Below, piece after piece: positions 6,335-32,132 of a stretch of DNA of 64,000 nucleotides (position 1 is its first letter; the number at the start of each line of letters is the position of its first letter). The DNA lies in assembly GCF_016903815.1 (NCBI RefSeq), contig NZ_CP069973.1. One strand, given 5' to 3'. The translations under genes were made by a program, and so were the position numbers. Under the pieces are notes generated by a model. That model was given only the letters and a program-made list of their open reading frames with translations. It had not been told where the DNA came from and did not search any database. Origin of the DNA: Escherichia coli. Lineage in GTDB: Bacteria; Pseudomonadota; Gammaproteobacteria; Enterobacterales; Enterobacteriaceae.

Positions 6335-8711
<2,377 letters not shown>

Positions 8712-26611: not shown

Positions 26612-29044
26612 ATGAGTGTGATTGCGCAGGCAGGGGCGAAAGGTCGTCAACTGCATAAATTTGGTGGCAGTAGTCTGGCTGATGTGAAGTGTTATTTGCG
26701 TGTCGCGGGCATTATGGCGGAGTACTCTCAGCCTGACGATATGATGGTGGTTTCCGCCGCCGGTAGCACCACTAACCAGTTGATTAACTGGTTGAAACTA
26801 AGTCAGACCGATCGTCTCTCTGCGCATCAGGTTCAACAAACGCTGCGTCGCTATCAGTGCGATCTGATTAGCGGCCTGCTACCCGCCGAAGAAGCCGATA
26901 GCCTCATTAGTGCCTTTATCAGCGATCTTGAGCGCCTGGCGGCGCTGCTCGACAGCGGTATTAACGACGCGGTGTATGCGGAAGTGGTGGGCCACGGCGA
27001 AGTGTGGTCGGCGCGCCTGATGTCTGCGGTACTTAATCAACAAGGGCTGCCAGCGGCCTGGCTTGATGCTCGCGAGTTTTTACGCGCTGAACGCGCTGCG
27101 CAACCGCAGGTTGATGAAGGGCTTTCTTACCCGTTGCTGCAACAGCTACTGGTACAACATCCAGGCAAACGTCTGGTGGTGACCGGGTTTATCAGCCGTA
27201 ACAACGCCGGTGAAACGGTGCTGCTGGGGCGTAACGGTTCCGACTATTCCGCGACACAAATCGGTGCGCTGGCGGGAGTTTCCCGCGTAACCATCTGGAG
27301 CGACGTCGCCGGGGTATACAGCGCCGACCCGCGTAAAGTGAAAGATGCCTGCCTGCTGCCGTTGCTGCGTCTGGATGAGGCCAGCGAACTGGCGCGTCTG
27401 GCGGCTCCCGTTCTTCACGCCCGTACTTTACAGCCAGTTTCTGGCAGCGAAATCGACCTGCAACTGCGCTGTAGCTACACGCCGGATCAAGGTTCCACGC
27501 GCATTGAACGCGTGCTGGCCTCCGGTACTGGTGCGCGTATTGTCACCAGCCATGATGATGTCTGCTTGATTGAGTTTCAGGTGCCCGCCAGCCAGGATTT
27601 CAAACTGGCGCATAAAGAGATCGACCAGATCCTGAAACGTGCTCAGGTGCGCCCACTGGCGGTTGGCGTGCATAACGATCGCCAGTTGCTGCAATTTTGC
27701 TACACCTCAGAAGTGGCCGACAGTGCGCTGAAAATCCTCGACGAAGAGGGATTACCTGGCGAACTGCGCCTGCGTCAGGGGCTGGCGCTGGTGGCGATGG
27801 TTGGGGCGGGTGTCACCCGTAACCCGCTGCATTGCCACCGCTTCTGGCAGCAACTGAAAGGCCAGCCGGTCGAATTTACCTGGCAGTCCGATGACGGCAT
27901 CAGCCTGGTGGCAGTACTGCGCACCGGACCAACCGAAAGCCTGATTCAGGGGCTGCATCAGTCCGTCTTCCGCGCAGAAAAACGCATCGGCCTGGTATTG
28001 TTCGGCAAGGGCAATATCGGTTCCCGCTGGCTGGAACTGTTCGCCCGTGAGCAGAGCACGCTTTCGGCGCGTACCGGCTTTGAATTTGTGCTGGCAGGCG
28101 TGGTGGACAGCCGCCGCAGCCTGTTGAGCTATGACGGGCTGGACGCCAGCCGCGCGTTAGCCTTCTTCAACGATGAAGCGGTCGAGCAGGATGAAGAGTC
28201 GCTGTTCCTGTGGATGCGCGCCCATCCGTATGATGATTTAGTGGTGTTGGACGTTACCGCCAGCCAGCAGCTTGCTGATCAGTATCTCGATTTTGCCAGC
28301 CACGGTTTCCACGTCATCAGCGCCAACAAACTGGCGGGAGCGAGCGACAGCAATAAATATCGCCAGATCCACGACGCCTTCGAAAAAACCGGGCGTCACT
28401 GGCTGTACAACGCCACCGTCGGTGCGGGCTTGCCGATCAACCATACCGTGCGCGATCTGATCGACAGCGGCGATACTATTTTGTCGATCAGTGGGATCTT
28501 CTCCGGCACGCTCTCCTGGCTGTTCCTGCAATTCGACGGTAGCGTGCCGTTTACCGAGCTGGTGGATCAGGCGTGGCAGCAGGGCTTAACCGAGCCTGAT
28601 CCGCGTGATGACCTTTCCGGCAAAGACGTGATGCGCAAGCTGGTGATTCTGGCGCGTGAAGCGGGTTACGACATCGAACCAGATCAGGTGCGCGTGGAAT
28701 CGCTGGTGCCTGCCCATTGCGAAGGCGGTAGCATCGACCATTTCTTTGAAAACGGCGATGAACTTAACGAGCAGATGGTGCAACGACTGGAAGCGGCCCG
28801 CGAAATGGGGCTGGTGCTGCGCTATGTGGCGCGTTTCGATGCCAATGGCAAAGCGCGTGTGGGCGTGGAAGCGGTGCGTGAAGACCATCCGCTGGCATCA
28901 CTGCTGCCGTGCGATAACGTCTTTGCCATCGAAAGCCGCTGGTATCGCGATAACCCTCTGGTGATCCGTGGGCCTGGCGCGGGGCGCGACGTCACCGCAG
29001 GGGCGATTCAGTCGGATATTAACCGCCTGGCGCAGTTGTTGTAA
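26612..29044 (+). CDS. metL: bifunctional aspartokinase II / homoserine dehydrogenase II
   Basis: 810-aa ORF starting 2 nt after the metB stop; recognised as MetL. Confidence 0.96.
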   Translation: MSVIAQAGAKGRQLHKFGGSSLADVKCYLRVAGIMAEYSQPDDMMVVSAAGSTTNQLINWLKLSQTDRLSAHQVQQTLRRYQCDLISGLLPAEEADSLISAFISDLERLAALLDSGINDAVYAEVVGHGEVWSARLMSAVLNQQGLPAAWLDAREFLRAERAAQPQVDEGLSYPLLQQLLVQHPGKRLVVTGFISRNNAGETVLLGRNGSDYSATQIGALAGVSRVTIWSDVAGVYSADPRKVKDACLLPLLRLDEASELARLAAPVLHARTLQPVSGSEIDLQLRCSYTPDQGSTRIERVLASGTGARIVTSHDDVCLIEFQVPASQDFKLAHKEIDQILKRAQVRPLAVGVHNDRQLLQFCYTSEVADSALKILDEEGLPGELRLRQGLALVAMVGAGVTRNPLHCHRFWQQLKGQPVEFTWQSDDGISLVAVLRTGPTESLIQGLHQSVFRAEKRIGLVLFGKGNIGSRWLELFAREQSTLSARTGFEFVLAGVVDSRRSLLSYDGLDASRALAFFNDEAVEQDEESLFLWMRAHPYDDLVVLDVTASQQLADQYLDFASHGFHVISANKLAGASDSNKYRQIHDAFEKTGRHWLYNATVGAGLPINHTVRDLIDSGDTILSISGIFSGTLSWLFLQFDGSVPFTELVDQAWQQGLTEPDPRDDLSGKDVMRKLVILAREAGYDIEPDQVRVESLVPAHCEGGSIDHFFENGDELNEQMVQRLEAAREMGLVLRYVARFDANGKARVGVEAVREDHPLASLLPCDNVFAIESRWYRDNPLVIRGPGAGRDVTAGAIQSDINRLAQLL

Positions 29045-30138
29045 TCCTGAGCCAGAGAAAGCAGTATTTGCGTAACGCGCCCTGCGGAAAGCGGGGCGCT
29101 GTGAGTAAATACTGCTTGTTTATGTAGCCAGTCGATAAAATGTCTGCTGGTTGCTAAAGAGAGCATTTCTGCTTTGCTGTTATTTCCGCCCGTTAATGCA
29201 CATACCATTTTACGATTTTTGCCCTGAACCCAGAGTTGCCACTGATTTTTCCACCAGCCGTGATAAGTTGTTCCCTGAAAACGCCAGGGCATATTATCGG
29301 TATCGTCAGCTATTTCCTCTTCAATAAACCAAATCTCACCTTGCTGTTGGCGAAACAGATCAGCCCATGCCGTAATAATGGCACCTCTTAAAAAACACTC
29401 GTGTGAAATTACATGTGTTTTTACTGTAGGGAATAAAATATTCAGTACTCTGAAATGCCCGTGTGCAGTGATAACCGGACGCAGAATAACACCTTTAGCA
29501 TTGCGTTTGAGCGCTGCGCTGCCATATTGAATCTCATCAAACTGACTGCGGCGTAGAAATTGTGCTTCGCGCATATCAACGCGTTGTACAATATTACTCT
29601 CGTGTAACTCTGGTTCTGCATTCCCTCTGTATCGATAATGCAGACTTTCTCCAGCCTGATGCTGCGTGTAATTAGTAGAAAGATGAAGAATATTACCGCG
29701 AAGAGCATCAAAACTGATTAAAACATACAGTTTCTGCCCGCCGCTGGCTCCCTGAAATGGCACCAGAAGAGCAACCGTTTCGATTATTTCAGGAGGCGTT
29801 ATTTCTTTCTGATATTGTTTAGGTGTCCAGACTTTTTTGCAGTTACGACATTGAATGCGTTGCGACCCCTGTGGATTGTGGCCATAACAAATCGTCTTTG
29901 TGCCATAACATACCGGGCAGAAATGACCTTTCTCAGTTGCAAAAGTAGATAAGTGAACTGACAACCAGTCACGAAATTGCTGTTCGTCAAACAACGGCGG
30001 GTAACTTCCACATGCCCGACAGTGCAGTGCCGGATAACCCAGTCGATAGTCTGGCCAGCTGTAATCTGTCGATGTTGGTTGCCCTAAATTACGACAACCA
30101 AACGACTTGCAGGCATTAATCGTAAACAGAGTCGACAT
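29008..30138 (-). CDS. hypothetical protein with Cys-rich (putative zinc-ribbon) N-terminal region; not present at this locus in K-12 as I recall
   Basis: 376-aa ORF. N-terminal 110 aa contain four Cys pairs (C-x4-C, HC-x2-C, C-x2-C, C-x2-C). No family recognised. Region is more AT-rich than the flanking genes. The 3' end overlaps the metL 3' end by 37 nt. Confidence 0.55.
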   Translation of the reverse strand: MSTLFTINACKSFGCRNLGQPTSTDYSWPDYRLGYPALHCRACGSYPPLFDEQQFRDWLSVHLSTFATEKGHFCPVCYGTKTICYGHNPQGSQRIQCRNCKKVWTPKQYQKEITPPEIIETVALLVPFQGASGGQKLYVLISFDALRGNILHLSTNYTQHQAGESLHYRYRGNAEPELHESNIVQRVDMREAQFLRRSQFDEIQYGSAALKRNAKGVILRPVITAHGHFRVLNILFPTVKTHVISHECFLRGAIITAWADLFRQQQGEIWFIEEEIADDTDNMPWRFQGTTYHGWWKNQWQLWVQGKNRKMVCALTGGNNSKAEMLSLATSRHFIDWLHKQAVFTHSAPLSAGRVTQILLSLAQDYNNCARRLISD

Positions 30139-30270
30139 ATATCACCAACGATTTCACAAGGTCGTTGATTTTGTCCGGCAACTATCCCCTGCGGATGTGA
30201 TTACTCTCACATAAATAACTCTTTCAGAACGTAATGTAGCAATCCTTTAAATCACTGAAAGGGACTATTT

Positions 30271-31824
30271 ATGAAAATTAAAATACTTGCTGCGGGTATC
30301 GCATTAACATTGCCGTTCTGGGCTTGCGCCAAAGATGTCACCATCATTTATACCAACGACCTCCATGCGCATGTCGAGCCTTATAAAGTGCCGTGGATCG
30401 CTGATGGTAAACGGGATATTGGCGGCTGGGCAAATATCACTACGCTGGTTAAGCAAGAAAAAGCAAAAAATAAAGCGACATGGTTTTTTGATGCGGGTGA
30501 TTATTTTACCGGGCCATATATCAGCAGCCTGACCAAAGGTAAGGCTATTATCGATATTATGAATACTATGCCGTTTGATGCCGTCACGATAGGCAACCAT
30601 GAATTTGACCACGGCTGGGACAACACATTATTACAGTTGAGTCAGGCAAAATTCCCTATTGTGCAGGGCAATGTTTTTTATCAGAACAGCAGTAAATCAT
30701 TCTGGGATAAGCCATATACCATCATCGAAAAAGACGGTGTGAAAATAGGCGTTATAGGTTTGCACGGTGTATTTGCCTTTAATGACACGGTATCTGCGGC
30801 AACGCGAGTGGGGATTGAAGCGCGTGATGAAATTAAATGGCTACAACGTTATATCGATGAACTTAAAGGCAAGGTTGATTTGACCGTCGCCCTGATCCAT
30901 GAAGGTGTTCCGGCCCGCCAGTCCAGTATGGGAGGCACAGATGTGCGTCGCGCGCTGGATAAAGATATTCAGACGGCAAGTCAGGTGAAAGGGCTGGATA
31001 TTTTGATCACCGGACATGCGCATGTGGGTACGCCGGAACCGATTAAAGTCGGCAATACGCTCATCCTCTCCACTGACAGCGGCGGGATTGATGTGGGCAA
31101 ACTGGTTCTCGACTACAAAGAGAAGCCGCATGATTTTACGGTGAAAAACTTCGAGCTTAAAACCATTTACGCCGACGAGTGGAAGCCCGATCCGCAAACA
31201 AAACAGGTGATCGACGGCTGGAATAAAAAGCTTGATGAAGTGGTGCAACAAACGGTCGCGAAATCGCCGGTTGAATTAAAACGTGCCTATGGTGAATCGG
31301 CTTCCCTCGGGAACCTGGCGGCTGATGCTTTACTGGTAGCGGCGGGTAAAAACACCCAATTGGCGTTAACCAACTCTGGCGGCATTCGCAATGAGATCCC
31401 CGCAGGGGCGATTACGATGGGCGGCGTCATCAGTACCTTCCCGTTTCCCAACGAACTGGTGACGATGGATCTCACGGGTAAACAATTACGCAGTTTGATG
31501 GAACACGGCGCAAGTTTAAGTAATGGCGTTTTACAGGTATCGAAAGGCCTGGAAATGAAGTACGACAGCAGTAAGCCGGTTGGTCAGCGGGTAATCACGC
31601 TGACTCTGAATGGCAAACCGATTGAAGATGCGACGATTTACCACATTGCTACTCAGAGTTTCCTTGCTGATGGTGGAGATGGTTTTACCGCCTTTACCGA
31701 AGGGAAAGCGCGTAACACAACGGGCGGTTATTACGTTTATCACGCCGTGGTTGATTACTTCAAAGCGGGTAACACCATCACGGATGAACAGATCAACGGT
31801 ATGCGCGTGAAAGATATCAAGTAA
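30271..31824 (+). CDS. secreted 5'-nucleotidase / UDP-sugar hydrolase family metallophosphoesterase (UshA-like)
   Basis: 517-aa ORF with N-terminal signal peptide ([20 protein letters not shown]). Calcineurin-like phosphoesterase motifs ([27 protein letters not shown]) and C-terminal 5'-nucleotidase-type motifs ([19 protein letters not shown]). Divergent from the 376-aa ORF. Confidence 0.8.
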
Positions 31825-32132
31825 AAGTACGTATTGAGTTGATTCATCTGTTTGTTACCAGTTGATTTTGCAGATCCAGTATTCGGCCTACGCGAGGGCG
31901 CAGGCCGAATCAGATGCCTTAGCATCACCATCCGGTGGCAGGACGTTGTTTTTCGAATAAGCCCAGGTGTCGCTGTGTTGTCAGAATATCAGTCAAAACG
32001 TGCGAGGTGGATTGCGCTATAGAGAAATCTTTTATCGCCTCTAATTAAGATGAGTTTTTTTCAACTTCCCTGATTTTTCCTCACCATCATTGGTCATTTT
32101 TCGGTTGACGCCCTTTAGCTTTTCCTTCATCT

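Follow-up and report, generated by a model that had tools for sequence, protein, structure and literature searches.

FAM, a candidate domesticated descendant of an IS1-type transposase encoded beside nucleotide-scavenging genes in gamma-proteobacteria

Within a stretch of Escherichia coli DNA of 64,000 nucleotides (NCBI RefSeq assembly GCF_016903815.1, contig NZ_CP069973.1), hereafter referred to as the window, an open reading frame (ORF) located between metL and metF encodes a protein of 376 aa annotated as hypothetical. The name FAM is used here for this protein, which appears derived from the insertion sequence (IS) IS1 and lacks the DDE triad of transposases. FAM exhibits the features by which a domesticated transposase is operationally defined, i.e., transposase ancestry, loss of mobility, conserved synteny (37 loci in more than 10 genera) and purifying selection. 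As regards its role, about even chances are given to FAM being a non-mobile descendant of an IS1-type transposase, which would act as a regulator of the adjacent scavenging genes, a reading built from sequence and predicted structure. At the scale of the family, and with a confidence falling a little short of that, FAM and its relatives may constitute a previously unrecognised group of gamma-proteobacterial transcription factors derived from DDE transposases, in which each clade would regulate its own type of periplasmic scavenging operon (5'-nucleotidase/Tsx, deo/nup or sulfatase/anSME) and the E. coli clade would recognise its target without the ancestral helix-turn-helix (HTH), via two zinc ribbons and a dead catalytic domain.

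Fold, zinc ribbons and the IS1 connection

Considered alone, the FAM protein has no significant match in Pfam, no PADLOC family was found at E<=1, and the search of PDB sequences by phmmer gave nothing useful; the C2H2 zinc-finger arrays retrieved by a PDB profile search were judged to be artefacts of Cys periodicity and discarded as homologues. In NCBIfam, residues 74-105 match the IS1/IS1595 zinc-binding domain NF050000 at 21.3 bits, below the cut-off of 28, while in PHROGs the zinc ribbon is again the sole matching part, and weakly so. Having been made from the letters and their translated ORFs, the first-pass annotation of the window had reported no recognisable family, which holds at curated thresholds only, since the protein is picked up once profiles and folds are compared. 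A HMMER search of 1.84 billion cluster representatives returned 118 related clusters in all, i.e., a small family encountered in Enterobacteriaceae, Vibrionaceae and Agarivorans, with further members from Serratia, Proteus, Enterovibrio and others brought to light by the fold search. Full-text literature searches retrieved no publication dealing with the family.

The Cys residues of the FAM protein are C10, C15, C40, C43, C74, C77, C97 and C100, together with a non-conserved C84. In a family alignment of 52 members, the most distant of them at about 20% identity, C74 occurs in 41 sequences and each of the other seven zinc-ribbon Cys in 48-52, which is far beyond chance; within the enterobacterial clade, none of the eight zinc ligands varies. 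The four Cys pairs noticed in the first-pass annotation thus exist and are conserved, with a numbering off by one for the second and fourth pairs, i.e., H40-C41-x2-C44 is actually H39-C40-x2-C43 and C96-x2-C99 is actually C97-x2-C100. Its grouping of these pairs into two zinc-ribbon modules agrees with both the conservation of the Cys and the AF2 model, where each Cys quartet is set around a beta-hairpin (strands 82-87/93-97 for ribbon 2). The N-terminal ribbons are the best-conserved part of the protein in the enterobacterial clade, where 37 of 107 residues are invariant vs 58 of 269 elsewhere; the pI is 8.5-9.5 and the N-terminus is net-positive. In a Photobacterium relative of 380 aa (P0132), the public gene call is truncated at the N-terminus (locus L014, about 7850-8000), the DNA upstream of the called start encoding the conserved zinc ribbon 1 (CKN.SCKNLG…LGYKALHCRHCDSYPPLF).

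The AF2 model computed from the family alignment forms a single body (pLDDT 94.2, pTM 0.93) in which two beta-hairpin zinc ribbons are linked by a long helix and followed by an RNase H-like domain, itself organised as beta-beta-beta-alpha-beta-alpha-beta-alpha with a four-stranded insertion and terminal helices. Fold comparison recognises a DDE-transposase fold, sequence identity to the matches being 7-14%. The C-terminal part of about 260 residues, initially described as devoid of recognisable relationship, proves on the contrary to be related to DDE transposases by its fold. Its Trp-rich character is modest, with 11 Trp in the protein (2.9%), of which W295 (46 of 52 sequences), W296 (51 of 52) and W300 (51 of 52) are nevertheless conserved.

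At the sequence level, the connection with IS1 comes from the N-terminal part. The Pfam InsA zinc ribbon PF03811 matches 9 of the 52 relatives at E<=1e-3. With the NCBIfam IS1 model NF033558, the curated cut-off of which is 100, the FAM protein scores 20.8 bits; nine long-form relatives score 16-38 bits and a tenth has no match, the alignments at 29-38 bits covering profile positions 1-130/140 out of 199. By hhalign, the family profile aligns with IS1 InsAB', as constructed from the IS1 present in the same window, with a probability of 96.6% and an E of 5e-10, over the zinc ribbon and the HTH; no signal was obtained by hhalign between the family and IS1 InsB alone. Since only the InsA part aligns, the case for an IS1 origin of the catalytic domain is made by the similarity in fold together with linkage to an InsA-like N-terminus. 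Ribbon 2 is homologous to the InsA ribbon, and the first-pass annotation was right in its aside that zinc-ribbon N-termini occur in transposases. The InsA HTH columns of the hhalign alignment correspond to a gap in the FAM protein, for which AF2 places beta1 at residue 118, straight after ribbon 2; in the AF2 model of the long-form relative P0149 from Agarivorans (pLDDT 92.3), three helices separate ribbon 2 from the strand that opens the catalytic fold. The enterobacterial clade of FAM has lost the InsA HTH that the longer relatives have kept.

Catalytic residues, mobility and selection

Residues conserved in the RNase H-like domain are T121, N156, Y168, R197, P221, H228, H246, E247, R251, W295, W296, W300 and N367. 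E247 is the sole universally acidic column of the 52 sequences (E in 47, D in 5) and is located just after beta5, at the position expected for the E of a DDE triad. Among these sequences, no conserved Asp was found on beta1 or at the end of beta4, which carry T121 (T or S in 49 of 52) and P221 (Pro in 50 of 52), respectively. As placed by secondary-structure topology and not by residue-level superposition, T121 and P221 would occupy the positions expected for the catalytic Asp. The FAM protein is not a functional transposase.

No terminal inverted or direct repeat was found at the FAM gene, at the pair it forms with the neighbouring nucleotidase gene or at the 3.0-kb island harbouring them (Table 1), and the hypothesis of a transposon was rejected at the level of both the gene and the gene pair. 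In contrast, a genuine IS1 of the window has perfect inverted repeats, the left one at 22705-22727 and the right one at 23450-23472. Of 5426 complete E. coli genomes, 1744 carry the FAM gene, nearly all of them once and none more than twice. This complete IS1 (22705-23472) sits in a frameshifted IS1H element (22573-24042) beside an Rhs element, and its insertion displays an apparent 9-bp duplication. It is missing from E. coli strain 7/2, otherwise 99.9-100% identical to the window (100% over window positions 28900-30300), hence window coordinates upstream of 22705 are lower by 777 than in that strain.

Out of six features defining IS1 membership, five are lacking in FAM, namely the curated score, the HTH, the DDE triad, the transposon ends and multiple copies, and the split into two ORFs joined by a frameshift; the InsA-type zinc ribbon is the sole one shared and is sub-threshold for the FAM protein taken alone. 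As such, no confident match to a characterised family was obtained, which the first-pass annotation had considered the outcome that would contradict it. Compared with IS1 InsA and InsAB', (i) FAM scores far below the IS1 cut-off and consists of one uninterrupted ORF in place of the insA/insB arrangement with its programmed -1 frameshift, (ii) it has an additional N-terminal zinc ribbon and a long helix, (iii) it is deprived of the two catalytic Asp and of the HTH, (iv) its C-terminal domain is larger, owing to the four-stranded insertion and extra helices, and shows no similarity to InsB by hhalign, and (v) it is without terminal inverted repeats, single-copy, and associated with a fixed chromosomal partner.

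The loss of these transposase features is accompanied by the maintenance of the gene. As estimated by the Nei-Gojobori method on 32 orthologue pairs from genome representatives, the ratio of non-synonymous to synonymous substitution rates (dN/dS) of FAM is 0.10-0.17 wherever the synonymous divergence (dS) can be estimated, with a median of 0.15 over 147 informative pairs; it is 0.04 for the nucleotidase gene, FAM evolving about three times faster. The reading frame is intact in 32 of the 33 FAM orthologues tested. Both the claim of an intact ORF of 376 aa and the absence of the degradation that was initially envisaged as a counter-argument are in line with these figures, the frame being intact and under purifying selection. 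Truncated copies are found in some lineages (L044, L046, L047 and L053) and indicate that the loss of FAM is tolerated. Within E. coli, two classes of FAM alleles are observed, at >=95% identity in 1167 genomes and at 80-90% in 569. Between the window (29008-31824) and strain C25 (L002, 5811-8621), dS is 1.16 for FAM and 0.145 for the nucleotidase gene, from which a sharp recombination breakpoint between the two genes is apparent.

Genomic partners and the divergent control region

In the window, metL, FAM, the divergent nucleotidase gene and then metF and katG follow each other, with the final 37 nt of FAM overlapping the 3' end of metL in convergent orientation. By comparison with K-12, the 3.0-kb island substitutes for about 198 bp of the metL-metF spacer, with clean boundaries. 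The G+C content of the FAM ORF is 45%, vs 52-58% in the flanking core genes. As a distinct observation, the 3' coding part of FAM contains an imperfect inverted repeat (29059-29117), with 27-nt arms complementary at 78% and a 5-nt loop, which lies 15 nt past the stop codon of metL, itself on the opposite strand, and could be the metL terminator embedded in the convergent gene.

Table 1. Coordinates of FAM, its domains and partner gene, and elements of the intervening control region in the window
Feature	Position	Strand	Basis or remarks
FAM ORF, complete, 376 aa and stop	29008..30138	-	RefSeq hypothetical protein WP_001521840.1
Zinc ribbon 1, residues 8-43, N8-x-C10-K11...C15...C40-x2-C43, family-specific	30010..30117	-	Conservation; AF2 hairpin 26-30/37-40
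Zinc ribbon 2, residues 74-107, C74-x2-C77...C97-x2-C100, homologue of the InsA (IS1) ribbon	29818..29919	-	
RNase H-like domain, DDE-transposase/integrase topology, residues 116-376, without catalytic Asp	29011..29793	-	
Partner gene, periplasmic UshA/YfkN-like metallophosphatase/5'-nucleotidase, 517 aa, N-terminal signal-peptide-like sequence	30271..31824	+	
3.0-kb island, in place of about 198 bp of the K-12 metL-metF spacer	29046..32055		
Divergent control region, 132 bp, from FAM to the nucleotidase gene	30139..30270		Alignment of 25 loci
Inverted repeat CAACGA-N10-TCGTTG with invariant 11-mer AAATCGTTGGT, directly upstream of the FAM start codon	30146..30167		
Perfect CRP-consensus core TGTGA-N6-TCACA, TGTGATTACTCTCACA	30196..30211		Conserved in 25 loci
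Nearly invariant block TTACGTTCTGAAAG	30221..30234	-	Alignment of loci

The pairing with a divergently transcribed secreted nucleotidase, as pointed out in the first-pass annotation, is not a peculiarity of this strain. Reference proteins were mapped onto 39 enterobacterial loci, 37 of which contain the upstream DNA, and the divergent pair formed by FAM and the 5'-nucleotidase gene occurs in all 37 informative loci, inside as well as outside the metL-metF context. It is present at metL-metF in Escherichia, Pseudocitrobacter, Citrobacter, Klebsiella, Kosakonia, Phytobacter, Superficieibacter, Kluyvera and Salmonella arizonae, and at other sites in Pluralibacter, Silvania, Enterobacter, Rahnella and Atlantibacter, often with extra nucleotidase paralogues and a Tsx-like channel. 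Larger islands comprise one to four additional 5'-nucleotidase paralogues (52-69% identity) and a Tsx-like channel (L002, 1431-5578; L022, L024, L044 and L045), and some genomes possess two copies of the module at different sites, e.g., E. coli SCPM-O-B-8794 (L017 and L024) and the genome of L034 and L045. The large E. coli island, composed of Tsx and three nucleotidases, corresponds to "GR31" of extraintestinal pathogenic E. coli (ExPEC) strains, a metL-metF island whose nucleotidases and Tsx have been discussed without mention of the FAM ORF (PMC12928451).

The association extends to distant relatives, sampled at 21-35% identity to the FAM protein. Nucleoside or nucleotide genes (5'-nucleotidase, deo, PNP or nucleoside transporter) adjoin seven of the eight sampled members of the nucleoside clade. 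The family gene is divergent from nupC-deoCABD in Agarivorans (P0149), with TatD and a Bmp/ABC nucleoside transporter alongside, from deoB-deoD-nupG (P0143), and from a 5'-nucleotidase gene in Vibrio (P0141) and Photobacterium (P0132); it lies 3' of a 5'-nucleotidase gene, i.e., downstream, in Photobacterium (P0172) and Vibrio (P0163), and downstream of a PNP/UDP phosphorylase gene in Thaumasiovibrio (P0213). In the tree, a separate paralogous clade, of which three members were sampled (L054, L010 and L056), is found each time beside the gene of an anaerobic sulfatase-maturating radical-SAM/SPASM enzyme (anSME), together with a sulfatase gene in two of the three loci (L054, 4519-9263; L010, 3807-7792) and a Tsx-like channel in L054, where the four genes apparently constitute an operon and only 12 bp separate anSME from the family gene. 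An operon association specific to each clade is typical of dedicated regulators, and the clades of this family, being tied to different scavenging operons either divergently or at the operon end, follow the pattern expected of such regulators.

Across 25 enterobacterial loci, the divergent control region contains invariant blocks, when the synonymous sites of the flanking genes are near or at saturation (dS >1) in most cross-genus comparisons. The CRP core is the single match in the 64-kb window, for 0.07 expected, with its centre some 66-68 bp from either start codon; CRP-like sites also occur at the more distant loci L049-L051 and L013. Its conservation across genera suggests that the accessory 5'-nucleotidase gene is under catabolite control. 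From the -10-like TAATGT in the region of the nearly invariant block, about 41 bp from the CRP centre, this block would be the core promoter region of the nucleotidase gene, at a position that fits a class II CRP promoter. The inverted repeat bordering the FAM start codon is a candidate operator or ribosome-binding region; an RNA element at this place was considered and dismissed, with no Rfam hit and a hairpin z of -0.62 vs shuffled sequences. Two conserved 7-bp arms 27 bp apart (CTTTCAG and CTGAAAG, within 30221-30260) flank the -10 region and start site presumed for the nucleotidase gene and are a second candidate operator or, alternatively, a candidate 5'-UTR hairpin overlapping the ribosome-binding site. 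Inspection of the 132 bp by eye revealed no CytR-like operator, and additional matches to AATCGTTGG in the larger islands fall inside coding sequence.

A regulatory role and its rivals

FAM keeps the InsA-type ribbon and the RNase H-like fold of an IS1-type transposase, has lost the two catalytic Asp and the transposon ends, and has gained a second N-terminal zinc ribbon, its enterobacterial clade having further lost the InsA HTH. In the scenario proposed here, this basic protein would bind nucleic acid in a zinc-dependent manner and regulate the scavenging gene or genes next to it, a role suggested by its descent from the DNA-binding InsA/InsAB', its basic character, its divergent or co-operonic placement and its clade-specific operon association. 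IS1 InsA represses its own promoter through binding of the IS1 ends, and FAM may similarly act on the conserved, presumably CRP-dependent divergent control region. The conserved pocket left in place of the active site (T121, H228, H246, E247, R251, N156 and N367) could then serve in oligomerisation or in contact with an effector or nucleic acid, and not in DNA cleavage.

Several observations weigh against this reading. The HTH is needed for InsA to bind DNA, yet it has been lost in the very clade of FAM where purifying selection persists, so that recognition would have to rely on both ribbons and the inactivated catalytic domain, unless FAM acts through another partner. The highest conservation is concentrated around the former active site, which fits a ligand-binding or catalytic role too, and the assignment of T121 and P221 to catalytic positions is topological instead of coming from a residue-level superposition. 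The nucleotidase gene survives where FAM is truncated (L044 and L047), hence the partnership is not obligatory. Finally, the repeat CAACGA-N10-TCGTTG was not found upstream of the other nucleotidase and tsx genes in the larger islands, nor was any motif common to the control region and the other promoters of these islands.

The clustering at the former active site leads to the explanation that comes next in order of credence, albeit an unlikely one, where the RNase H-like domain would have been repurposed as a small-molecule-binding or catalytic module, e.g., a His/Glu site acting on nucleotides, nucleosides or nucleic-acid fragments, with a direct part in scavenging metabolism. The invariant or nearly invariant residues H228, H246, E247, R251, N156, Y168, R197 and N367 are indeed polar and borne by the elements that form a DDE active site, and the family is closely linked in genomes to enzymes of nucleosides and nucleotides; however, the same pocket residues are conserved in the sulfatase-linked clade too. 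Lower in probability is a non-canonical recombinase, which would move or rearrange the two-gene module of FAM and nucleotidase between chromosomal sites. The occurrence of the pair in at least three unrelated chromosomal contexts, its two copies in some genomes, the sharp breakpoint between the two genes in E. coli and the universally kept acidic residue E247 are all compatible with such an activity, but FAM lacks a DDE triad, terminal inverted repeats and target duplications, the K-12 spacer boundaries are clean, nearly all genomes are single-copy, synteny is stable over saturated synonymous divergence, and ordinary homologous recombination together with horizontal transfer explains the patchy distribution.

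Two further explanations can be granted very little weight. That FAM is a decaying transposase remnant devoid of host function and merely carried along with the nucleotidase gene would account for the truncated copies, for several shorter database variants, for the faster evolution relative to its neighbour and for the loss of the HTH in its clade; this is hardly reconcilable with the dN/dS values and the near-constant integrity of the frame, with zinc ligands invariant across the clade, with a confident AF2 model, or with the conservation of the family from Enterobacteriaceae to Vibrionaceae and Agarivorans. Equally improbable is a role for FAM, as sensor or effector, in an undescribed system of anti-phage defence or stress sensing, a direction hinted at in the first-pass annotation. 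Zinc-ribbon and nuclease-fold architectures do occur in defence proteins and FAM resides in a variable island of lower G+C content; but PADLOC gives no match and PHROGs recognises, weakly, nothing beyond the zinc ribbon, the nuclease catalytic residues are absent, and in every neighbourhood examined the neighbours are consistently metabolic, i.e., catabolic or transport genes, and never defence genes.

Among characterised proteins, the transposase of ISCth4 (IS256/Mutator family) and the cores of retroviral integrases resemble FAM at the superfamily level (7-14% identity), from which FAM differs by the absence of a DDE triad and by other DNA-binding domains. Nuclease-dead regulators of transposon origin include the bacterial TldR repressors, derived from TnpB, a RuvC-fold, RNA-guided protein, and the plant FHY3/FAR1 transcription factors, derived from Mutator. 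The concept is common to FAM, i.e., catalysis and mobility lost, nucleic-acid recognition kept and fixation beside or in control of host genes, the regulatory role of FAM being a proposal, whereas fold and ancestry are unlike and no guide RNA was found at FAM (no Rfam match). With CytR and DeoR, FAM has in common a link to target genes of the same types (tsx, deo, nupC/nupG and nucleotidases) and to CRP-dependent promoters, without having a LacI-type or DeoR-type domain according to Pfam and NCBIfam, its transposase-like fold being unrelated. The cytR gene itself lies at 14052-15077 on the minus strand, some 14 kb upstream of the island and at its normal chromosomal position, a proximity that is probably a coincidence.

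To our knowledge, documented cases of DDE transposases turned into domesticated host proteins are common among eukaryotes and very rare in bacteria. One study describes TnpA-REP as the first prokaryotic domesticated transposase (PMC8266576). FAM is a clean bacterial candidate, combining a confident structure, IS1 ancestry, lost catalysis and mobility, purifying selection and a fixed partner. Carried by about one third of complete E. coli genomes, including ExPEC, and present in Klebsiella, Citrobacter, Enterobacter, Salmonella and vibrios, it is also a concrete candidate for the control of the accessory nucleotidase/Tsx scavenging island. The names given in databases to family members are inconsistent, from "IS1 family transposase", "InsA N-terminal domain-containing protein", "cytoplasmic protein" and "Transposase and inactivated derivatives" to even "Lactate dehydrogenase", and constitute an annotation problem in which the transposase label is likely to mislead pipelines that count IS.

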